From: Candidatus Omnitrophota bacterium
Lineage (GTDB): Bacteria; Omnitrophota; Gorgyraeia; 2-01-FULL-45-10
Length of the DNA stretch: 64,000 bases
NCBI GenBank assembly: GCA_026387175.1
Contig: JAPLME010000012.1
Span: forward strand, 69,849 to 133,848
Reading direction: 5' to 3'
A program made the position numbers and the translations under genes. The notes beneath the pieces were generated by a model. It did not search any database and was not told where the DNA came from. It saw only the letters and a program-made list of their open reading frames with translations. This document shows positions 4,728 through 32,722 of this stretch, in pieces; position 1 is the first letter of the stretch, and every line of letters starts with the position of its first letter.

Positions 4728-5683
4728 AATTCTTCCTCGGAGTGGATATAGGGTCTGTCTCCGTCAAGATGGCTGTATTGAATGAAGAGAAGGCCCTGAT
4801 GGGAAGCGTATATGTGGAAACTGCCGGCGCGCCCCTTGAAGCTCTGTGCAAAGCGGCGGCAGAGATAAAAAATACTGTTGAAAAACATTCGGCGCAAATA
4901 TGCGGCATAGGTATCACCGGAAGCAGCAGAAAGCTGGCAGCGCTTGTTCTGGGGGCGGACGTAATAAAAAATGAGGTTACTGCGCAAACCGTGGCCGCTT
5001 TACATTACGATCCGCGCATAGCTACCGTAATAGAAATCGGCGGGCAAGATTCAAAGGTTATACTCCTTAAGGACGGCATACCTACCTGGCATAACCTTAA
5101 TACGTTATGCGCGGCGGGCACCGGATCGTTCCTTGCCTCGCAGGCAATACGGCTTGGCATCCCGATAGAGGAATTTGGAAACTACGCCCTTCGATCGACA
5201 GTCAGGGTAAACATCGCTTCGAAGTGCACAGTATTCTCGGAAAGCGATATGATACATAAGGCGGCGCTTGGCTGTCGAAAGGAAGATATAATAAACGGCC
5301 TTTGCGAAGGCCTGGCGCGAAATTTTATAAATAATGTGGCGCGCAACAGAGAAATGCCCGATCCCGTTATTTTCGTCGGAGGCGTAGCGTCGAATATAGG
5401 TGTAGTTCGCGCATTTGAGGCGGCGCTCAAGACCAGGATAACCGTACCTGAAGAACACCGGATCACCGGATGCGTAGCTATGGCGCTTCTGGCTCTAAGG
5501 AGCGGCATAAAAGAATCGGCGTTTAAAGGCTTTGGCCTGCTCGACAAAGAAGTAAGGGCCGGCTTCTTTTTATGCGAAGACTGCCCAAACCAGTGTGAGA
5601 TAACCAGGGTTAATGTTGAAGAGAAAAGCGTCGGCTGTTTTGGCTCCAGATGCGGGAAACATAACAGCGCGCTTTCAGCATAA
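4724..5683 (+). CDS. BadF/BadG/BcrA/BcrD-type ATPase (CoA-substrate-specific enzyme activase-like) with C-terminal Cys cluster
   Basis: MKFFLGVDIGSVSVKMAVL (actin-fold phosphate-1 motif) and GIGITGSSRK. C-terminal CEDCPNQCEI...CFGSRCG. Confidence 0.8.
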   Translation: MKFFLGVDIGSVSVKMAVLNEEKALMGSVYVETAGAPLEALCKAAAEIKNTVEKHSAQICGIGITGSSRKLAALVLGADVIKNEVTAQTVAALHYDPRIATVIEIGGQDSKVILLKDGIPTWHNLNTLCAAGTGSFLASQAIRLGIPIEEFGNYALRSTVRVNIASKCTVFSESDMIHKAALGCRKEDIINGLCEGLARNFINNVARNREMPDPVIFVGGVASNIGVVRAFEAALKTRITVPEEHRITGCVAMALLALRSGIKESAFKGFGLLDKEVRAGFFLCEDCPNQCEITRVNVEEKSVGCFGSRCGKHNSALSA

Positions 5684-5724
5684 ACTGGTTTATGGTATAA
5701 TTATAAAAATTACCGAGGTGAGAA

Positions 5725-6066
5725 ATGCTCAGAGGCTGTATAGTTATTTTAATCCTGACGTTCGGAATATTGATATTTTCTCCCTCCTGCCCTAAAGATA
5801 GTCTTGCCCAACAAAACATACGCGCCGTGGAAGGCAAGATATACGCGATAGATACATTCAAATCCACCGTTACCGTGAAGTCACTCATGCTCGCTCCGGT
5901 TATCAAATATAGCGATGTCACTCTCTTCGTCGGGCCCAATACGAAAATAAAGCGTTTAGGCAGTGACATAAGCATTTTCGATCTTACTATGGGTTGCCCT
6001 GTAAATGTCCAATATGCCGATAAAGTTGGCACCCCGGAAGCATTATCGATCACGGTTACTAAATGA
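5725..6066 (+). CDS. secreted/lipoprotein-like hypothetical protein
   Basis: SD gaggtgag. Hydrophobic N-terminus LILTFGILIFSPSCP (lipobox-like Cys). Confidence 0.5.
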   Translation: MLRGCIVILILTFGILIFSPSCPKDSLAQQNIRAVEGKIYAIDTFKSTVTVKSLMLAPVIKYSDVTLFVGPNTKIKRLGSDISIFDLTMGCPVNVQYADKVGTPEALSITVTK

Positions 6067-7368: not shown

Positions 7369-8086
7369 TAAATTTGCTTTAGAACGCGCTTTGTCGAAAA
7401 TGGGCGTGGCTTCTCGCAGTCAGACCCGGGAATGGATCCTGGAGGGGCGGCTAAAAGTTAATGGAAAGACGGTTAAAGACCCTCTTCGCATTGTTCTTCC
7501 CGGGAAAGATAAAATTACTTTGGACGGAAAGGAAGCGCGGAAAAAGACCCGGGAGACGATCCTGCTGTATAAGCCGAGATCCGTTGTGACGACTCGGTCT
7601 GATGAGCATGGCCGCCGCACGATTTTTAATCTGCTACCCGAAGAGCTGCAATCTCTTCATCCGGTGGGCCGTCTGGATATGGCTACTACCGGGCTGCTAC
7701 TGTTGACCAATGATACGAAGCTTTCAGCTTATTTGGCCGACCCCGCCAATGCTATTGTGCGCGTCTATGCGGTATCCGTTAAGGGTAAGGTCACGGACGC
7801 GGAAGTCCGTAAACTTATCGAGGGTGTTTGGGACCGCGGCGAATTTTTAAAACCGTTAAAGCTAACCCTGCGTAAATCCAGCAATAGAGAGTCCCATCTG
7901 ATCATGGAATTAACTGAAGGGAAAAACAGAGAGATCCGAAGGATATTTGAATCTATCGGCCATGAGGTGACGAGTCTTAAGCGCATTGCCTTCGGTGCCC
8001 TGAAGCTTGGAGACATGCAGCCGGGTGAGTTTCGCCACCTGACGCCGGAAGAGATCAGGGCATTCTTAATTTATATTGATTTATAA
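7352..8086 (+). CDS. RsuA/RluB-family rRNA pseudouridine synthase (S4 domain + PseudoU_synth_2)
   Basis: S4-like N-terminus (LERALSKMGVASRSQ...GRLKVNGK). Catalytic region HPVGRLDMATTGLLLLTNDTKL with the conserved Asp. Confidence 0.9.
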   Translation: MSSAINKFALERALSKMGVASRSQTREWILEGRLKVNGKTVKDPLRIVLPGKDKITLDGKEARKKTRETILLYKPRSVVTTRSDEHGRRTIFNLLPEELQSLHPVGRLDMATTGLLLLTNDTKLSAYLADPANAIVRVYAVSVKGKVTDAEVRKLIEGVWDRGEFLKPLKLTLRKSSNRESHLIMELTEGKNREIRRIFESIGHEVTSLKRIAFGALKLGDMQPGEFRHLTPEEIRAFLIYIDL

Positions 8087-8109
8087 TGAGCACAATGTTA
8101 TAACTAATG

Positions 8110-8265
8110 AAGTTTTAGCATCCCGGAACACGGCGTAAATCCGTGGCGGACCCACCGCTGTAATCGGTACGATGCGCATAGCAATAATAGCTAGCCACTT
8201 TTAACTAATGTTAGAGGGAAGGCATGCGCATCTGGAAAGAACCGTAAGCCAGAAGACCTGCTAAA
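8110..8265 (+). promoter_or_regulatory. cobalamin (B12) riboswitch aptamer
   Basis: CCCGGAACACGGCGTAAATCCGTGGCGGACCCACCGCTGTAA ... TAGCCACTT ... GAGGGAAGGC ... AAGCCAGAAGACCTGC matches the RF00174 cores (GGUGAAAUCC / CNGCAACUGUAA / GCCACUG / GGGAAGGC / B12-box AGYCAGGAGACCUGCC) in the correct order. Confidence 0.8.
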
Positions 8266-8290
8266 GCTGTAGAAAACCGAATCCAACGGC

Positions 8291-8345
8291 AAAGGATTTT
8301 GGCGAAGCGTATAGACGCTTTGTCAGAGTCCTTTTTTATTTTTAT
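8291..8345 (+). terminator. intrinsic terminator (probable riboswitch expression platform)
   Basis: AAAGGA..GGCGAAGCGT-atag-ACGCTTTGTC..TCCTTTTTTATTTTTAT: a 10-bp stem (2 G-U pairs) inside an outer AAAGGA/TCCTTT stem, followed by a U-tract. Confidence 0.55.
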
Positions 8346-8362
8346 ATTCAATAAACCAAAAA

Positions 8363-8415
8363 GGCCGATGTCAGAGACATCGGCACTTAGCCTGTAATAC
8401 GGCTGAATAAACTTG
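8363..8415 (+). repeat. copy 1 of a conserved ~53-nt two-hairpin leader motif (recurs at 32619-32722)
   Basis: ggCCGATGTCagaGACATCGGcacttAGCCtgtaatacGGCTgaataaacttg, followed by GGAGGA SD and ATG 8424. Confidence 0.75.
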
Positions 8416-8423
8416 GAGGACGT

Positions 8424-8558
8424 ATGAATAGGAACAGAAAAAGCAATAAGGGCGGGACGAAAAAAAATAGAAATGATATTATCGCGAGCCGGAAAACTTG
8501 CACGGCCGACGGGACAGGTTTGTCGCATTACGTTCTGATGGACAAGAAGACCAAATAA
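8424..8558 (+). CDS. small basic peptide (44 aa), candidate RiPP precursor; below the ORF-track size cutoff
   Basis: ATG 8424 is 7 nt after GGAGGA. Translation MNRNRKSNKGGTKKNRNDIIASRKTCTADGTGLSHYVLMDKKTK, TAA at 8556. Only 4 nt from the radical SAM gene. Confidence 0.45.
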   Translation: MNRNRKSNKGGTKKNRNDIIASRKTCTADGTGLSHYVLMDKKTK

Positions 8559-8562
8559 GGTA

Positions 8563-9930
8563 ATGGATCGTTTTGTCAATTCAGGGGACGGCCCGGCATT
8601 CCAGCCGATAGAGATAGGCCATCCGCGTTATATTGGGCTCATAGATCCCGATACCGCATTTTGGTCATTGGTTGAACGCGGTAAACTATCTGATATTATG
8701 CGTGACAGTGAACTGTTGAGGGCCTACCGTAAGAAAAGGGAAAGTTTTCGCGCGGAGATGGATCGTCTCCGTTTTGGTCTGAGACCGTCCGCGGTATATT
8801 TTAATATTACCGAAAGATGTAATCTTAATTGCCGCTATTGTTATATTCCCGAACATATGCGCCGCAATGGCAGGCACATGTCCGAAAAGACCGTGATCGA
8901 TGCCCTTCAATTATTGAAAGCATACTTTAAAACGTCGGCCGGTAATGCCTCATTACCTAAAATAATATTTCACGGAGCCGAACCTCTGCTGAATAAAAAG
9001 GCATTGAGAGCCGCTATCGAAAAGTTTAGCGGGGACTTTATGTTTGGCATACAAACGAACACCGTTTTATTGGATGCCGAAATGGTTTCGTTTTTGAAAT
9101 CCAACAAAGTAAGCATCGGTATCTCACTTGATGGCCCGACGGCCGAAACAGTTAACAGGACCAGGGCGAGCTGGTCCGGCGAAGGTGTATTTCACAGCGT
9201 TATAGAGGCGATGAAGTTGCTCAGGGGTTATGATGCATGGAGCGCGATATGCACGATCACAACTGAAAATGTGCGCTCCCTTCCCGGTCTTACAGCTTTT
9301 TTACATAAGAACGAAGTTCCCACCTGTCTTTTAAATGTTGTTCGATGTACTCTTCCTTCCGCTCGAAAAATTAAACCTGCGGATGCGCTTGCCGCGCGAT
9401 ATTTTATTAAAGCTCTCGAGACGAGCCATAGACTTTATAAAGAGAGCGGCCGCAAGCTTGTGGTGGCTAACTTTGCCAATATACTGATAAGCATCCTTGC
9501 CCCAACAGCTCGCAGATTGATGTGCGATATCTCGCCGTGTGGGGGAGGAAGAAGCTTTTTTGCCTTAGTGCCAAACGGCGACATATTTCCCTGCAGCGAA
9601 TTTATCGGGTTGAAACGTTTTAAAGGCGGCAATATTTTTAAGGATAGTGTAAAAAATATTTTAAAAAGTGATCCATTTAAGCTGGTTACAGAAAGAAAAG
9701 TAGAGAAGATCGAACCATGCCGCCGATGCGCTATCCGGCATTTTTGCGGCTCGCCCTGTCCCGCCGAAGCGTATGAAATGAACGGCGGAATGAATAAAAC
9801 GGGTTCGTTCTGCGAATTCTATGAAGAACAGACCCGTTTTGCATTTCGGCTCATAGCGGATAACAGGCATGAAGCTTTTCTATGGGATGGCTGGGATAGG
9901 GGCACCAAAGAAATCTTTAATGTCACATAG
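8563..9930 (+). CDS. radical SAM enzyme with C-terminal SPASM/twitch domain (anSME-like peptide-modifying family)
   Basis: NITERCNLNCRYCY (CX3CX2C) at ~aa 85. C-terminal CDISPCGGG...CSEF...CRRCAIRHFCGSPCPAEAY (CX2CX5CX3C). ~85-aa N-terminal extension could be a peptide-recognition domain. Confidence 0.85.
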   Translation: MDRFVNSGDGPAFQPIEIGHPRYIGLIDPDTAFWSLVERGKLSDIMRDSELLRAYRKKRESFRAEMDRLRFGLRPSAVYFNITERCNLNCRYCYIPEHMRRNGRHMSEKTVIDALQLLKAYFKTSAGNASLPKIIFHGAEPLLNKKALRAAIEKFSGDFMFGIQTNTVLLDAEMVSFLKSNKVSIGISLDGPTAETVNRTRASWSGEGVFHSVIEAMKLLRGYDAWSAICTITTENVRSLPGLTAFLHKNEVPTCLLNVVRCTLPSARKIKPADALAARYFIKALETSHRLYKESGRKLVVANFANILISILAPTARRLMCDISPCGGGRSFFALVPNGDIFPCSEFIGLKRFKGGNIFKDSVKNILKSDPFKLVTERKVEKIEPCRRCAIRHFCGSPCPAEAYEMNGGMNKTGSFCEFYEEQTRFAFRLIADNRHEAFLWDGWDRGTKEIFNVT

Positions 9931-9995
9931 CCGCATTAAGCATAACCCATCGAAATTTATCTTGCATATTTTGAAAATTGGCAGTATTCTTGGGA

Positions 9996-10457
9996 ATGAT
10001 GAGTCACTTCTACTTACTAAACAAAAAAGGCTTTGCCCTTCTTGAGGTTTTAATAGGCGTCATCATTTTAAGTGTAGGCCTATTTACCGTAGGGGCTGTT
10101 TTTTTCGGAGAGTTTGGCACTATTAATAAGCTGAGCGAAACGCTGGTGGCTACCTTAGCGGTTCAGGAAGAAATCGATAAAATCAGGGCCCTGCCTTTTA
10201 ACAATATCGCCGCGTATACATGTTCAGGATATAACGCGGCGGATCCTATGTGCCCCTCCGGCTTTAAATATCTGGCAAATAAAAGCCCCGTCTGCACAGT
10301 ATTGGTTGACGGATGCGCAAACGCGGTTGATAATTTTAGCGGCGACGCAAATATTAAAAAAGTTTCAGTTACCGCGACCTGGAATTCTGCCTCAGGGAGA
10401 ATATTGTCAAAAAGCCTGGTAACTCTGATAACTTATCAGGGCATCGATAAGTGGTGA
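9996..10457 (+). CDS. prepilin-type N-terminal cleavage/methylation domain protein (pseudopilin/minor pilin)
   Basis: LNKKGFALLEVLIGVIILSV = G|FxLLE class III signal. Track start 9978 is a TTG. ATG at 9996. Confidence 0.7.
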   Translation: MMSHFYLLNKKGFALLEVLIGVIILSVGLFTVGAVFFGEFGTINKLSETLVATLAVQEEIDKIRALPFNNIAAYTCSGYNAADPMCPSGFKYLANKSPVCTVLVDGCANAVDNFSGDANIKKVSVTATWNSASGRILSKSLVTLITYQGIDKW

Positions 10458-10470
10458 AAACGAGGAAAAT

Positions 10471-11154
10471 TTGAATAAACGAAAGAGCGGATTTACAATG
10501 GTTGAGATTCAGATAGCGGCATTTATCGCTTCTATCATATTATTAGCCGCTGTTTCTTTGTACACGATGTATTGGCGGACTTTCGTAACGGACAGCGCTT
10601 ATCTGGACGTTTATTCAAGTTCAAGAATCGCGGTGGACCACATGGTAAGAGATATCAGGTGCGCGGCGCAAGTAGTGACGAACTATGGTTCTTATACGAC
10701 CACCGACAATACCATCGTTCTTCAGGTCCCTTCTATAGATAACTCGAACCCACCGATCACTATAAACTCTATAACCTCAGACACAAATCTTTATTACGAT
10801 TATATAATTTATACATTGATCTATAATAATAATCTGCAAAGCTACGATCTGTACAGAATTGTCCAAATAGACGGGAAGTTCACTACCGCCGGAGACTCGT
10901 ATTATCATAAAAACGGCAGGGTAAATGAAAATCGCGCCGTAGCCCACCATTGCGGCACTAATTCCGGAAACTTACTGACTTTCAGCTCCGGAAGCGTCGG
11001 TGGCACAACGTTATCACATGTTACATATCTGTCGGATGTCAATACCATAGGTATCTCTTTGCCGATTAATGAAAAAATGCTTTCTTTAAGCGGATCGGGA
11101 ACGAACACGGCGCAGATGATCCCGACAGCGGTAGTCAGGATGCGTAATAAATAA
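10471..11154 (+). CDS. prepilin-type N-terminal cleavage/methylation domain protein (pseudopilin/minor pilin)
   Basis: KRKSGFTMVEIQIAAFIASIILLAA. TTG start preceded by GAGGA. Confidence 0.7.
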   Translation: MNKRKSGFTMVEIQIAAFIASIILLAAVSLYTMYWRTFVTDSAYLDVYSSSRIAVDHMVRDIRCAAQVVTNYGSYTTTDNTIVLQVPSIDNSNPPITINSITSDTNLYYDYIIYTLIYNNNLQSYDLYRIVQIDGKFTTAGDSYYHKNGRVNENRAVAHHCGTNSGNLLTFSSGSVGGTTLSHVTYLSDVNTIGISLPINEKMLSLSGSGTNTAQMIPTAVVRMRNK

Positions 11155-11156
11155 AT

Positions 11157-12431
11157 ATGAATTCCAATAAACATAAAAATCCGGACGGCTTTATATTAGT
11201 TACCTCTCTTTTAATAGTAGCCATATTGCTTATACTGGTATCAGCCTGCATGGCCAGGCTTGTCACCGAATATGGGCTTGCGGCAAAATTTTATAATTCG
11301 ACCGCTGCCTTCGATTTGGGAGAAGTAGGATTAGAGCGGGCAATTTGGCATTACTTAAATAATAATCTTACCGGCTGGACTCCTTCGCCGGATCCGTCCC
11401 ACCCAGGTAATACACTATACACCCTTCCTCACCAGTTTCTTAAGGCGCATGTCGGAAGCGTCTATCTTAACATAGGGGAATACGACGCAAGCATTTCAAT
11501 TTCCGCCGATGGGACGGCTGCCGTTATCTCCGCTAATGGGTATGTGCCAAATTACTCATCATATAGCGCAAAAAGAACGTTGGGGGCTACATACAAAAAA
11601 TGGGGCGCTTTTACACACGCTGTCTCCAGCCTTCATAATATTACGATGAGCGGTCAGGCCAAAGCGGATAGCTATGATTCTTCGAAAGGGGCCTATAATT
11701 GTATATTATCGGGTGGGTCCAGAAATATCGGACAAAAAGGCAGTATGGCGTCTAACGGTTCGATAACCCTGAGCGGAGAAGTATATATCAATGGAGACGC
11801 GACTCCAGGATCCGGCCATCCATTTCCGGCCAGCCCCTCGCCTTCGACTTATATATCGGGTAAATACGGAACCATGTCGACCCCGATAACAGTTGATGCG
11901 GCTATGACTTCAGCCCTGGCTTCGACCATTGCCGCTACAAAAACAAGCAATAGCAACAGCGGTATCACCATTACTCATAACGGCACTACAACGCCTTACA
12001 CCGGAGGAAACAATCTTTCCGTAAGCGGCCAGGATGTAATGACAATACCCGGCGGCACATATTATTTTACAGCGATAAGCACGAGCGGCCAGGCGCAGAT
12101 TAATGTTACAGGGCCCTCAGTTATATATGTGGATGGCGGCAGTATAAATATTTCCGGGCAGGGAATTGTAAATAGCGGGCAGCCGAAAGATATGCAAATC
12201 TACTCTACAGGTTCTACTGTCAGTTTATCGGGTCAGGCCGCTGTTACCGGAGCCATATATGCCCCTTCCGCTACTATTACCCTGAGCGGACAGGAGAATT
12301 TTTATGGCTCTATTTTTTGCGGCTCCGATGTCGATAGCGGCCAAGCGGTGGTACATTATGATACTAGCCTGTCAAGCGTGACGCCATCTTTTGCGACGAA
12401 TGGAGTGACTTCCTGGGCGGATATAAAATAA
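11157..12431 (+). CDS. large PilX-like minor pilin / pseudopilin with Ser/Thr/Gly-rich beta-rich C-terminal region
   Basis: N-terminus NPDGFILVTSLLIVAILLILVSAC (PilX-N-like, no Glu5). 424 aa, S/T/G-rich. Confidence 0.5.
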   Translation: MNSNKHKNPDGFILVTSLLIVAILLILVSACMARLVTEYGLAAKFYNSTAAFDLGEVGLERAIWHYLNNNLTGWTPSPDPSHPGNTLYTLPHQFLKAHVGSVYLNIGEYDASISISADGTAAVISANGYVPNYSSYSAKRTLGATYKKWGAFTHAVSSLHNITMSGQAKADSYDSSKGAYNCILSGGSRNIGQKGSMASNGSITLSGEVYINGDATPGSGHPFPASPSPSTYISGKYGTMSTPITVDAAMTSALASTIAATKTSNSNSGITITHNGTTTPYTGGNNLSVSGQDVMTIPGGTYYFTAISTSGQAQINVTGPSVIYVDGGSINISGQGIVNSGQPKDMQIYSTGSTVSLSGQAAVTGAIYAPSATITLSGQENFYGSIFCGSDVDSGQAVVHYDTSLSSVTPSFATNGVTSWADIK

Positions 12432-12664: not shown

Positions 12665-13903
12665 ATGATGATAAATTCCGGTGACACGGCGTGGGTCCTG
12701 ATAGCTACCGCGCTCGTAATGCTTATGACTATCCCGGGCCTCGCGCTTTTTTACGGCGGCCTGGTGCGAAGGAAGAATGTCCTTGCTACCATGATGCAGT
12801 CTTTTTTTGTATTGTGCCTAATAAGCTTGCAATGGATATTGTTTGGGTATAGTCTATCCTTTGGGCCCGACAAATGGCACCTGATAGGGAACCTGTCATG
12901 GTTTGGCCTGAACGGTGTTGGCGCGAGCCCGAATGCCACTTATGCCGCGACCATTCCCCACATTCTCTTTATGGCATTTCAAATGATGTTCGCGGTAATC
13001 ACCCCCGGGCTTATAACAGGCGCATTTGCCGAAAGAATGAAATTTTCCACATATGTGGTCTTCACTTTATTGTGGGCAACCCTTGTATATAATCCTGTGT
13101 GCCACTGGATCTGGGGCGCCGGCGGATGGCTGGGCAAGATGGGCGTAATGGATTTTGCCGGAGGGCTTGTCGTGCATGTTACAGCGGGTTTTTCGGCGCT
13201 TGTATGCGCGCTGTATATGGGATCGAGAAGAGGGTATGGTAAGGAGCCCATGCCGCCGCATAATCTCCCATTGACCATTATAGGCGCCGGGCTTCTATGG
13301 TTCGGCTGGTTCGGATTTAATGCCGGAAGCGCGCTGGGAGCAAATGCTGTCGCGGCGACAACGTTCGTTGTAACCAATACAGCCGCCGCTACCGCCGCGC
13401 TTACCTGGATGCTGATCGAATGGAAAATTACCGGAAAACCCACCCTCCTCGGTGGAGCTACCGGCGCCGTAGCGGGGCTGGCGACCATAACTCCCGCGTC
13501 CGGCTTTGTGAGTCCGATTTCGGCTATTATCATCGGCATCGCGGCCTCCCTGATATGCTATTTTTCAGTCGCCGTGGTGAAGCTTAAATTCTCTTACGAT
13601 GACTCACTTGACGCGTTTGGCGTGCATGGCATCGGAGGGCTGGTCGGCGTTATCTTTACGGGAGCCCTTGCTCAGAAGATATTAAACCCCGCGGGCAACA
13701 ACGGCCTGTTCTTTGGGAACGTCCCACAGCTTGGCATTCAGGCATTCGGCTCATTAATTGTTATCATCTACTCTGTCGGCATGACATTCGCGATGCTTAA
13801 AATACTCGATCTCACCATGGGGCTCAGGGTGAGCGACGAGGAAGAGGTGATAGGCCTTGATATCACTCAGCACGAAGAGAGCGCATACACATTATTAGAC
13901 TAA
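12665..13903 (+). CDS. amt: ammonium transporter (Amt family)
   Basis: N-terminus [36 protein letters not shown] is the Amt signature. 11 TM. Followed by a PII gene. Confidence 0.9.
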
Positions 13904-13913
13904 GGAGAAAAAT

Positions 13914-14255
13914 ATGAAATTGATAATAGCCGTAATTCAGCCGCATAAGCTTGAAGATGTCATGCAGGAACTTGACAAGAGCGAGATCCATCTAAGGACC
14001 GTTTCCAATGTTCTGGGGTGCGGGAGGCAGAAGGGCCGGACGGAAGTATACCGCGGGAGAAAAGAGACGGGAAACCTTCTTAAAAAGGTCCGCATCGAGA
14101 TCGCCGTTAACGAAAAATTTGTCGAACCGGCTATAGCGGCGATAACGCGCGGCGCCAGGACCGGTAATATAGGCGACGGTAAGATATTTGTGCTGGATCT
14201 TGAGGAATGCGTAAGGATACGAACGAATGAAAAAGGCAGCGAAGCCATAGGGTAG
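13914..14255 (+). CDS. glnK: nitrogen regulatory protein P-II (GlnK, amt-linked)
   Basis: [16 protein letters not shown]...VLGCGRQKG...YRG...[11 protein letters not shown]; 113 aa; classic amt-glnK pairing. Confidence 0.9.
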
Positions 14256-21072: not shown

Positions 21073-21147
21073 GCGCCTGTAGCGTAACGGATAACGCGTT
21101 GGCCTCCGAAGCCATGTATGGCAGTTCGATTCTGCCCAGGCGCGCCA
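21073..21147 (+). tRNA. tRNA-Arg (anticodon CCG)
   Basis: Cloverleaf: acceptor GCGCCTG/CAGGCGC; D-stem GCGT/ACGC; anticodon arm TTGGC-CTCCGAA-GCCAT; T-arm GGCAG-TTCGATT-CTGCC; discriminator G plus encoded CCA. Confidence 0.85.
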
Positions 21148-23513: not shown

Positions 23514-23590
23514 GCGCCCGTAGCTCAACTGGATAGAGTAACTGGCTACGAACCAGTAGGTTGGCCGTTCGAGCCGGCCCGGGCGCGCCA
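23514..23590 (+). tRNA. tRNA-Arg (anticodon ACG)
   Basis: Acceptor GCGCCCG/CGGGCGC; D-arm GCTC-AACTGGATA-GAGT; anticodon arm ACTGG-CTACGAA-CCAGT; T-arm GGCCG-TTCGAGC-CGGCC; discriminator G plus CCA. Confidence 0.85.
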
Positions 23591-31491: not shown

Positions 31492-32616
31492 ATGAAAATA
31501 GAGAGAAATTATTTTTTCACCTGTCAAGAGCTGAATGACAAAGAAAAAAGGAATTTGTTAATATACGACTTGATAAGAAAAAAAGGCGTGATATCCCGGG
31601 CGGAGATTACTAAAGCCACCGGGATAAACGCGGTATCGGTCTCCAATTACGTAAATAATTTTATTGAAAAGAAGATGGTTCTCGAAAAAGGATTTGATGT
31701 ATCCTCCGGCGGAAGAAAGCCGGAACTCGTTGAGCTCGATTCCGAATCGAACTACGTTATAGGTATAAATATCGGTAAGGCTAATATACGGAGCGTGGTC
31801 GCGGATATCGGATTAAGCGTGAAAGCCAGGAAGCAGGTTTCCAGGCCATCGGACCGGGGAATGTCCGGAGAGATCGTTAAATTAATAGAAGAGATCATCC
31901 GCGATTCCAAGATCAGCGCTTCAAATATAAAAGCTATAGGACTGGGCGTATCGGCCGCAAAATTTGATCAGGCCGCCGGCGTAATCAAAAAAGAGACCGG
32001 CATAGACGCGTATGCAGGTCCTTCCGCTGTGTGCGCGGCTTTCGCGGAGAAGCGCTTTAATAAGGCCGCGGAAAACTTCGAGAATATGTTATATATATAT
32101 TCGGACGTCGGCGAAGGCGTTATGACGCGCGGCGAAGCGTATCTGAGCGCGTCGGAAGATGCGGAGCTTTTGGACGGGAAGCTCAGGTACTTAAGGCCAT
32201 GGGATGATTATTTAAGCATAGTGGAGAGCGCGAAGCGCGAAGTGGCCAGAGGCGTGGGGACCAAAATCGTGAGCCTGGCCAGCGGAAGAATGGATAACAT
32301 AACAAAAGAAGTAGTAGTAGCTGCCGCGAAAGCCGATGACGAAGTCGCGCTTAACATAGCGTTCGGCGTCGGTATAAACCTGGGACTAAGGATAGCGTAT
32401 CTAATCAATCTTTTCACCCCCGAAGTTATAGTGATAGGGGACGGCCTCCAGGATACCGGCGATATAATATTCATGCCGCTCAAAAAGATGATAGAGCGGC
32501 TATCTTATAGAAACAATATGAAAAATCTGAAGATAATATTGGGCGCTTTCGGTGAAGACGCGCCTGAAATCGGAGCGGCATCGCTCGCTGTCAGAGAAAT
32601 ATTTCTTAAAGCGTAA
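31492..32616 (+). CDS. ROK-like transcriptional regulator / sugar-kinase-fold protein with N-terminal wHTH
   Basis: N-terminal LLIYDLIRKKGVISRAEITKATGINAVSVSNYVNNF (MarR-like wHTH), followed by an actin-like ATPase fold (VIGINIG...). Canonical ROK Zn motif not evident. Confidence 0.55.
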   Translation: MKIERNYFFTCQELNDKEKRNLLIYDLIRKKGVISRAEITKATGINAVSVSNYVNNFIEKKMVLEKGFDVSSGGRKPELVELDSESNYVIGINIGKANIRSVVADIGLSVKARKQVSRPSDRGMSGEIVKLIEEIIRDSKISASNIKAIGLGVSAAKFDQAAGVIKKETGIDAYAGPSAVCAAFAEKRFNKAAENFENMLYIYSDVGEGVMTRGEAYLSASEDAELLDGKLRYLRPWDDYLSIVESAKREVARGVGTKIVSLASGRMDNITKEVVVAAAKADDEVALNIAFGVGINLGLRIAYLINLFTPEVIVIGDGLQDTGDIIFMPLKKMIERLSYRNNMKNLKIILGAFGEDAPEIGAASLAVREIFLKA

Positions 32617-32618
32617 AA

Positions 32619-32722
32619 GGCCGATGTCGGAGACATCGGCACTTAGCTTGTAATGCGGCTTAATAAACTTGACCGATGTCGGAGACATCGGCACTTAGCC
32701 TGTAATATGGCTGAATAAACTT
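32619..32722 (+). repeat. two tandem copies of the ~53-nt two-hairpin leader motif (copies 2 and 3)
   Basis: 32619-32671 and 32672-32722 each read CCGATGTCggaGACATCGG-cactt-AGCYtgtaatRYGGCT-Kaataaacttg. The last copy is followed by GGAGGA and ATG 32734. Confidence 0.75.

Follow-up and report, generated by a model that had tools for sequence, protein, structure and literature searches.

A corrinoid riboswitch with a predicted activating platform precedes the cbpA-cbpB peptide and radical SAM cassette of an Omnitrophota bacterium

A stretch of 64,000 nucleotides from Candidatus Omnitrophota bacterium (assembly GCA_026387175.1, contig JAPLME010000012.1, positions 69,849 to 133,848 of the forward strand; hereafter the window, numbered from its first letter) contains a corrinoid riboswitch that almost certainly is real and leads a two-gene cassette, cbpA-cbpB, encoding a 44-residue precursor peptide (CbpA) and a radical S-adenosylmethionine (SAM) enzyme with a SPASM domain (CbpB). 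The layout of its expression platform points to a switch that is probably ON with corrinoid. The cassette is very probably tied to cobamide metabolism, because of its linkage to the riboswitch and its embedding among cob and btu genes. We slightly favour, as a whole, an explanation in which the promoter, the corrinoid riboswitch, cbpA and cbpB would form one transcription unit, the ligand would turn the switch ON, CbpB would modify CbpA, and the product would have a role in cobamide metabolism.

The aptamer lies on the + strand at 8099-8279, where the Rfam covariance model RF00174 gives 71.6 bits (gathering score 31.5, E 1e-15) over the full model (positions 1-189), with P1 formed by approximately 8111-8120 and 8259-8268. 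The original prediction had proposed a cobalamin riboswitch here, and the model score, well above threshold, bears it out. All the motifs that it quoted are present: reading of the sequence gives the core motifs GCCACT (8194-8199) and GGGAAGGC (GGGAAGG-type, 8216-8223), as well as the B12 box AAGCCAGAAGACCTGC (8246-8261). The CCC-containing loop L5 of the aptamer is ACCCA (8150-8154). The window aptamer is homologous to those of 57 related loci, and the fold of the whole leader has a z-score of -7 against shuffled sequences. The terminator-type platform, also proposed before, is confirmed as an intrinsic terminator at 8291-8345 on the + strand, with a 20-bp stem (8291-8334) and the U tract UUUUUUAUUUUUA (8335-8345); the platform stem region of the window has a folding energy of approximately -24.5 kcal/mol. 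A Shine-Dalgarno sequence (GGAGG, 8415-8419) precedes cbpA (8424-8558, + strand), and cbpB (8563-9930, + strand, 455 residues) begins 4 nt after the cbpA stop codon; the riboswitch is, as had been stated, the 5' leader of the peptide and enzyme pair.

Upstream of the aptamer, a candidate sigma-70 promoter can be read on the + strand at 8077-8104, with the -35 element TTGATT (8077-8082), a 16-nt spacer and the extended -10 element TGtTATAAC (8096-8104). It shares nucleotides with the stop codon that ends the upstream gene for a pseudouridine synthase, and the automated promoter scan omitted it, its -10 ending in C. The predicted transcription start, at about 8110-8112, is the first base of P1.

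Related loci were obtained by a scan of one genome per species, which returned 80 loci with CbpB relatives (49-81% identity) from more than 10 phyla: Omnitrophota, Planctomycetota, Syntrophales and other Desulfobacterota, Nitrospirota, Nitrospinota, Elusimicrobiota, Chloroflexota, Verrucomicrobiota/Lentisphaerota, Alphaproteobacteria, Melainabacteria and Actinomycetota. Aptamers in these loci were detected with Rfam and with an nhmmer profile built from the Rfam-confirmed matches. Nine of the 80 loci have too little upstream DNA to judge. Among the other 71, an aptamer on the same strand and less than 700 nt upstream of cbpB is found in 57; in 11 the aptamer is missing from this position, yet cobalamin genes surround the pair or an aptamer occurs at another point of the locus, and three show neither an aptamer nor cobalamin genes. 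The cbpA open reading frame (ORF) is present in nearly all related loci and, according to a clustering of all neighbouring ORFs, only the riboswitch, cbpA and cbpB are universal. The peptide and enzyme had been regarded as an unexpected target of a B12 riboswitch. They belong, however, to curated families, and the unit recurs across many phyla; the window holds a typical example of a system that is curated and as yet uncharacterised.

Between P1 and the terminator, the whole class shows a conserved 8-bp hairpin with a near-invariant 9-nt loop, GAUGGNAAA, which we identify as P13/L13 by its position and loop content. In the window this hairpin occupies 8277-8302 on the + strand (5' arm CCGAAUCC, 8277-8284; L13 AACGGCAAA, 8285-8293; 3' arm GGAUUUUGG, 8294-8302) and forms in the nascent-RNA fold. 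An alignment of 40 distinct P13 sequences has 95.3% of its cells paired, and three pairs are changed on both sides (for example, G-C in 22 sequences and A-U in 14); the covariation score was reached by none of 500 shuffles, and slid registers scored far lower. The first 12 nt of the window terminator (8291-8302) are the AAA of L13 followed by the P13 3' arm, and 9 nt are common to the P13 and terminator arms. Because the terminator 5' arm includes the P13 3' arm, the two structures are mutually exclusive. The same overlap, of at least 5 nt and with a median of 8, is found in 50 of 50 loci, and the P13 5' arm is situated outside the aptamer. Of 58 loci with an aptamer, 51 show a strong hairpin with a U tract behind it in the interval from the aptamer to cbpA, and their stems vary in sequence while the pairing is kept. 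Median energies across the class are -10.6 kcal/mol for P13 and -24.9 kcal/mol for the terminator. L5 is UCCCG in 30 loci, ACCCG in 17, ACCCA in three and UCCCA in one, in agreement with the published consensus UCCCG, and the (U/C)GG of L13 is able to pair with the CC(G/A) of L5 in 50 of 51 loci.

These features suggest a three-strand switch in which P13 would be the antiterminator. Without ligand, the much more stable terminator should form, and transcription would stop at 8335-8345. Once a corrinoid is bound, P13 should be kept intact by a kissing loop between L5 and L13, whose sequence GAUGGNAAA (in the window, AACGGCAAA) is the predicted partner of L5 (U/A)CCC(G/A); P13 held in this way would block the base of the terminator, and RNA polymerase would read through into cbpA-cbpB. 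We consider this ON polarity probable, because the overlap between P13 and the terminator is the activating signature in Alkalihalobacillus halodurans and because the subclass also fronts cobT. By analogy with the same example, the ligand may be an incomplete corrinoid.

The mechanism on which this comparison draws was worked out through mutations that broke and re-formed base pairs (Procknow et al. 2023 mBio 14:e01588-23, PMC10653944). [quoted passage not shown] The spacing between P13 and the terminator was 0-82 nt, with no overlap, in 38 repressing riboswitches, and 7 of 12 synthetic designs that followed the P13/terminator rule activated (PMC10653944/PMC10327014). The riboswitch of the window and that of A. 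halodurans cobT share an RF00174-type aptamer with a CCC-containing L5, a P13 directly after P1 with a 9-10-nt loop that includes (A)UGG(C) (xAUGGCAxA in A. halodurans), and a P13 3' arm that is the terminator 5' arm, with three strands and no separate antiterminator. The A. halodurans platform reads UGAGG-CAUGGCAUAC-CCUCA, followed by GCUUAUUUAAGCUGGGG-U6. They differ in the length of P13 (8 bp in the window and 5 in A. halodurans) and in the aptamer sequence; furthermore, the cbpA class usually fronts cbpA-cbpB instead of cobT, its activation and ligand are predictions, and it spans many Gram-negative and candidate phyla rather than one Bacillus-type example. The repressing riboswitches of P. 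megaterium metE and B. subtilis btuF also resemble the window riboswitch in aptamer family, UCCCG-type L5, P13/L13 and a terminator with a U tract. There, P13 can coexist with the terminator and the antiterminator is a structure of its own, which gives four strands; in the window, P13 and the terminator compete directly, which gives three.

The riboswitch subclass is not specific for cbpA. A metagenome scan with the B12 box and the L13/P13 3' arm as query returned 62 loci. Downstream of the element lies cbpA in 45 of them and a transposase gene in one, a Zn-dependent oxidoreductase of the MDR family follows directly in nine and cobT follows directly in six, with one locus too short to tell. 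The CobT encoded downstream of the riboswitch in locus L124 scores 444.8 bits against a cut-off of 319, and thus the subclass fronts the same gene as the experimentally activating example. In locus L129 (3541-5779), the gene after that of the Zn-dependent MDR oxidoreductase, which is threonine-dehydrogenase-like, encodes a TrpD-like phosphoribosyltransferase (TIGR01245, 251 bits), and MDR oxidoreductase genes behind a riboswitch whose P13 overlaps the terminator are also found in L092, L098, L101, L107, L113, L122, L126 and L138. This MDR/TrpD-like pair may belong to a corrinoid-regulated pathway that is so far uncharacterised and might serve to make the linker or to activate the base.

A classical OFF switch, in which corrinoid would favour the terminator and cbpAB would be made when B12 is scarce, to scavenge or economise corrinoids or cobalt (for example, through a corrinoid- or cobalt-binding peptide), is the strongest competitor and comes near to the view of the original prediction, but we judge it unlikely. 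Almost all characterised members of RF00174 repress, which counts against activation: on corrinoid addition, 38 of 86 riboswitch reporters repressed green fluorescent protein expression, and 37 of those 38 have terminators (PMC9600662). The only natural activating corrinoid riboswitch found in the literature searched was that of A. halodurans cobT. In addition, the cob/btu and TonB-dependent receptor genes that share operons with cbpAB elsewhere are typically repressed by B12. An OFF switch could also find a possible antiterminator in the window itself, since its nascent fold lets the B12 box pair with the terminator 5' arm; we dropped this candidate because the pairing is not conserved (mean z approximately 0 over 36 loci). 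P13 is the only conserved competitor of the terminator, and with its 5' arm outside the aptamer, the ligand has no evident route to remove it. Moreover, a median P13 cannot withstand a median terminator unless it is stabilised, and the known stabiliser is the ligand-dependent kissing loop. The sharing of the subclass with cobT also argues against an OFF switch. The B12-dependent repression assumed before is rendered doubtful by the terminator 5' arm, which is shared with P13 in all 50 loci compared, as in the activating signature (PMC10653944).

Locus L002 provides an internal control, as its divergent riboswitch in front of cob genes shows the four-strand repressing layout. There (5201-5625), as in L003, two divergent cobalamin riboswitches stand approximately 65 nt apart. 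The minus-strand riboswitch fronts the cob operon and is of the four-strand repressing type, and the plus-strand one fronts cbpAB and is of the three-strand activating type, so that opposite signs are predicted within a single intergenic region.

Several observations weigh against the activating switch and the single transcription unit that we prefer. In the window, L5 and L13 would form two G-C pairs and a C.A mismatch at the third pair, the only such locus of 51. L5 and L13 are near-invariant, so a covariation test of the kissing loop is powerless; the first base of L5 and the variable base of L13 show a weak association that is confounded by phylogeny. Seven aptamer-bearing loci, mostly from Alphaproteobacteria, keep P13 and a second hairpin that has no U tract. 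The polarity is argued from one dissected natural example and from synthetic designs. The closest relative of the window cassette, L001 (Omnitrophica, 81% identity; 5066-5950), has no riboswitch, and a promoter-like site downstream of the aptamer, described below, could drive some transcription independent of the riboswitch. Finally, the chemistry and role that we propose for CbpA are conjectural; the peptide has only one Cys, which is Ser in two sequences.

With regard to these exceptional loci, alphaproteobacterial platforms without a U tract are found in L063, L067, L078, L080 and L031 (for example, L078 5745-5835), and constrained folds of such platforms show no clear difference in Shine-Dalgarno accessibility between the two states. 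In L001, cbpA is located after a cluster encoding an ArsP permease, a thioredoxin and DsbD_2. Recurrent ORFs of the type 'MVKGFDRR..VGTLFF' between the aptamer and cbpA were considered as upstream ORFs and rejected, since they are translated P13/terminator RNA; their AUG is missing in the window, L002 and L003.

The original prediction had asked that nothing separate the riboswitch from the start of cbpA at 8424. A terminator scan of the window found no + strand terminator between the one ending at 8345 and cbpA, and to that extent the claim holds; a promoter-like pair is nevertheless present, TTGTCA-17-TATATT at 8320-8348, which matches 10 of 12 positions and is built from the T-rich 3' side of the terminator. 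Furthermore, a 48-nt double-hairpin repeat, GGCCGATGTCRGAGACATCGGCACTTAGCCTGTAATACGGCTGAATAA, occupies 8363-8410 (+ strand) in the 5' untranslated region (UTR) of cbpA, between the terminator and the Shine-Dalgarno sequence. Because of its insertion, the window leader is approximately 50 nt longer than those of other loci. Further copies of the repeat are found at 32619-32666 and 32671-32718, with none expected by chance, and these two stand in tandem after an ORF that ends at 32616. The repeat is an insertion resembling repetitive extragenic palindromic (REP) sequences or miniature inverted-repeat transposable elements (MITE) of this genome. It does not belong to the riboswitch, and it lacks a + strand U tract. 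A 'minus-strand terminator' at 8384-8364 was rejected, as it is one hairpin of this element.

From these elements it could be argued that the riboswitch is uncoupled in this genome, with cbpAB driven by the REP-like insertion and the promoter-like site within the terminator's 3' side and the aptamer left as a relic; the unique C.A mismatch of the window and the loss of the riboswitch in L001, its nearest relative, would fit. We consider this quite improbable. The aptamer, P13 and terminator of the window are intact and score as well as those of other loci, and the 48-nt repeat, lacking a + strand U tract, would not stop read-through. As for the promoter-like site, the scan gave 20 such matches in this AT-rich stretch where shuffles predict 10.7, about a twofold excess, and the one at 8320-8348 is made of terminator sequence.

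The identity of both proteins is well defined. CbpA scores 57.8 bits with TIGR04164 (cut-off 35) and CbpB 660.6 bits with TIGR04163 (cut-off 375), with additional Pfam matches of CbpB to Radical_SAM and SPASM, and identical proteins are already in NCBI under the names CbpA and CbpB. The window proteins are thus members of the NCBIfam families 'cobo_pep' (TIGR04164) and 'rSAM_cobopep' (TIGR04163) with no difference at the family level. These short names presumably refer to an occurrence in cobalamin operons, and the curators had presumably noticed the cobalamin link. The CbpA/CbpB family comprises more than 2,600 protein clusters and extends over many anaerobic and candidate phyla. In the literature searched, we found no description of CbpA/CbpB (TIGR04163/4, cobo_pep) as a radical SAM system, nor of its regulation or product.

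In CbpB, the CX3CX2C motif is formed by C86, C90 and C93, and a complete 7-Cys SPASM set is formed by C326, C344, C386, C389, C395, C399 and C417, from which two auxiliary iron-sulphur clusters are predicted. Pfam gave no match to a B12-binding domain in CbpB, and the N-terminal Rossmann-like domain by which Class B radical SAM enzymes are defined is not present. An AlphaFold2 model of CbpB (pLDDT 82.6) shows an N-terminal domain (residues 14-71) of three strands and two helices. The earlier statement that the enzyme lacks a B12-binding domain and carries a non-Rossmann N-terminal extension is thereby upheld. [quoted passage not shown] Beyond its own family, CbpB has its best-scoring relatives in the RiPP maturases PapB, DynA, the SCIFF maturase and CteB.

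The core of CbpA in the window is DIIASRKTCTADGTGLSHYVLMDKKTK, and the consensus of 65 distinct sequences is [DK][VI]IAxRKxCxAxGTGLSHY[IV]LMD[KR]KxK. Relative to the Cys, positions R-3, G+4, G+6, L+7 and H+9 are invariant among the 65 sequences. The Cys itself is present in 63 and is replaced by Ser in two sequences from Elusimicrobia, and 30 further distinct metagenome sequences all have the Cys. The Asp in the C-T-A-D of the window is not conserved, and the N-terminal part of the peptide is short, variable and Lys-rich. By inspection of the sequence, neither a segment similar to a signal peptide nor a cleavage site of the Gly-Gly type was seen in CbpA.

We propose that the RRE-like domain of CbpB would bind the [DK][VI]IAxRK segment of CbpA, and that the enzyme would act on the near-invariant C-x-A-x-G-T-G-L-S-H-Y core with a 5'-deoxyadenosyl radical and two auxiliary iron-sulphur clusters. 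The single Cys would be the most likely site, by either a thioether cross-link or Cbeta oxidation, an assignment by analogy that is tentative at best. A thioether is favoured because of the similarity to CteB, PapB and the SCIFF maturase, and formylglycine (Cys/Ser oxidation) is suggested because of the similarity to anSME, the rare Ser variant and the Ala/Pro at +2. As evidence for an anSME-like reaction, the Ser variants were rejected, being only two related Elusimicrobia sequences among approximately 95. The invariant His could be an axial ligand of a corrin, which is speculation.

CteB/SCIFF maturase (PDB 5wgg, 5why) and PapB share the RRE-like N-terminus, the radical SAM core and the two-cluster SPASM domain with CbpB, but identity is only 19-20% and CbpB scores far below the cut-offs of those families; furthermore, the SCIFF and PapA precursors have several Cys and CbpA has one. 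anSME (PDB 4k36-4k39) has the SPASM fold and is the second-best structural match (TM approximately 0.77 to the target), and its substrate motif, like that of CbpA, has a Cys or Ser residue followed by Ala/Pro at +2 (C-x-A/P-x). Here, however, no sulphatase is present, the CbpA motif C-x-A-x-G ends in Gly and not in Arg, CbpB scores 124 bits with TIGR03942 against a cut-off of 349, and its N-terminal domain of peptide-binding type is absent from anSME. PqqA/PqqE and MftA/MftC also combine a very short conserved precursor with an adjacent radical SAM/SPASM enzyme, and PqqE is a structural match of CbpB at rank 45. These two systems have no exporter, and what they make serves a metabolic pathway within the cell. 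The pyrroloquinoline quinone and mycofactocin systems need further tailoring genes (pqqBCDF and mftBDEF, respectively), whereas only two genes are conserved here.

Less probable still than the uncoupled riboswitch is a secreted antimicrobial or signalling RiPP of the sactipeptide or ranthipeptide type, timed by corrinoid status and with no cobamide role, for although the RiPP maturases named above are the best relatives of CbpB and a short precursor beside its maturase is the typical layout of such clusters, the 24-residue CbpA core is almost invariant across more than 10 phyla, CbpA has a single Cys, cbpAB lies repeatedly within cob/btu operons and adjoining cobT, and no conserved immunity gene is found nearby, nor a leader peptidase or exporter, which sactipeptide and ranthipeptide clusters encode, in the 80 loci. 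Antimicrobial RiPP cores usually diversify, and the thioether cross-links of sactipeptides and ranthipeptides usually involve several Cys donors. The near-invariance of CbpA across many phyla appears to fit a fixed molecular partner better than an antimicrobial.

Gene order in the related loci supports the tie to cobamide metabolism, a second line that is independent of the riboswitch linkage. Loci without a proximal aptamer show an operon of the form cobT-cobS-cbiB-cobD-(AsnB-like)-cbpA-cbpB-btuF-(small radical SAM)-btuF-btuC-btuD-TonB receptor, in which CobT, CobS, CbiB and CobD score above curated cut-offs, and in Smithella and Syntrophaceae cobT stands directly 3' of cbpB. Since cbpAB occurs elsewhere inside these cobT/cobS/cbiB/cobD/btuFCD operons, it is associated with the B12 pathway, in disagreement with an earlier reading of the cluster as a B12-independent substitute pathway. 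On this context, either the riboswitch shared with cobT or the neighbouring genes for nucleotide-loop assembly and corrinoid transport, the modified peptide is proposed to act inside the cell in late cobamide metabolism, that is, in nucleotide-loop/lower-ligand assembly, in salvage or in the handling of incomplete corrinoids.

In loci L033, L034 and L038-L041 (for example, L034 3977-4927 and L039 5644-6372), a protein with an asparagine-synthase C-terminal domain precedes cbpA; it has a zinc ribbon and no glutaminase domain. The same loci encode a small MoaA/PflA-like radical SAM protein among the btuF genes. The AsnB-like and small radical SAM proteins may be further partners of the cbpAB system. 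Two more loci deserve mention: in L072 (3690-7358), the aptamer is 2.1 kb upstream, beyond an ORF on the opposite strand, and either a frameshift or an assembly error divides cbpB into two ORFs; in L059 (7385-7490), from Chthoniobacteraceae, a group II intron domain (RF00029, 46.8 bits) is found on the opposite strand just after cbpB.

RF00174, the NCBIfam families of CbpA and CbpB, and the design with P13 as antiterminator (2023) were already known; new here are the activating topology carried by the whole riboswitch-cbpA class and the riboswitch subclass that it shares with cobT. We tentatively suggest that the riboswitches of cbpA, cobT and the MDR/TrpD-like pair could form a broad natural class of corrinoid-activated switches sensing incomplete corrinoids, and that CbpA/CbpB could be a peptide-based component of cobamide assembly (nucleotide-loop/lower-ligand) or of incomplete-corrinoid handling in anaerobes. 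Riboswitches for corrinoids belong to the most common kinds. Should the cbpA class be activating, the P13/terminator topology would reveal the sign of regulation, and corrinoids, possibly incomplete corrinoids like cobinamide, would turn on a widespread regulon. The way B12-riboswitch regulons are understood when genomes are annotated, or when B12 cross-feeding among microbes is modelled, would then change. CbpA/CbpB becomes a candidate for a missing player in late cobamide assembly or salvage. The ON prediction runs opposite to the usual interpretation of a B12 riboswitch and lends itself to direct testing, and cultivable carriers of cbpAB exist, among them Paramagnetospirillum magneticum and Terasakiella.

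Downstream of cbpB, the window shows three genes on the + strand that had been described as pseudopilin genes belonging to the same set. Two of them have a prepilin-type signal: the first (9978-10457) passes TIGR02532, and the second (10471-11154) has the N-terminal signal and falls just under the Pfam threshold. The third (11157-12431) encodes a DUF7305 protein with no N-methyl match. Genes of the prepilin type near the cassette are found only in the window (downstream, 9978-12431) and in three closely related Smithella loci (upstream, for example L073 182-5426). They are not conserved neighbours; a functional link with the cassette was rejected as incidental, and the presence of prepilin clusters beside it is probably a coincidence. 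The rest of the neighbourhood consists of unrelated housekeeping genes that encode an RluB-like synthase, a Cache-domain protein, AmtB-GlnB, signalling proteins and IspH. The amtB-glnB genes, for an ammonium transporter and a P-II protein, are located at 12665-14255, downstream of the pilin-like genes, and two tRNA genes are found at 21073-21144 and 23514-23587.

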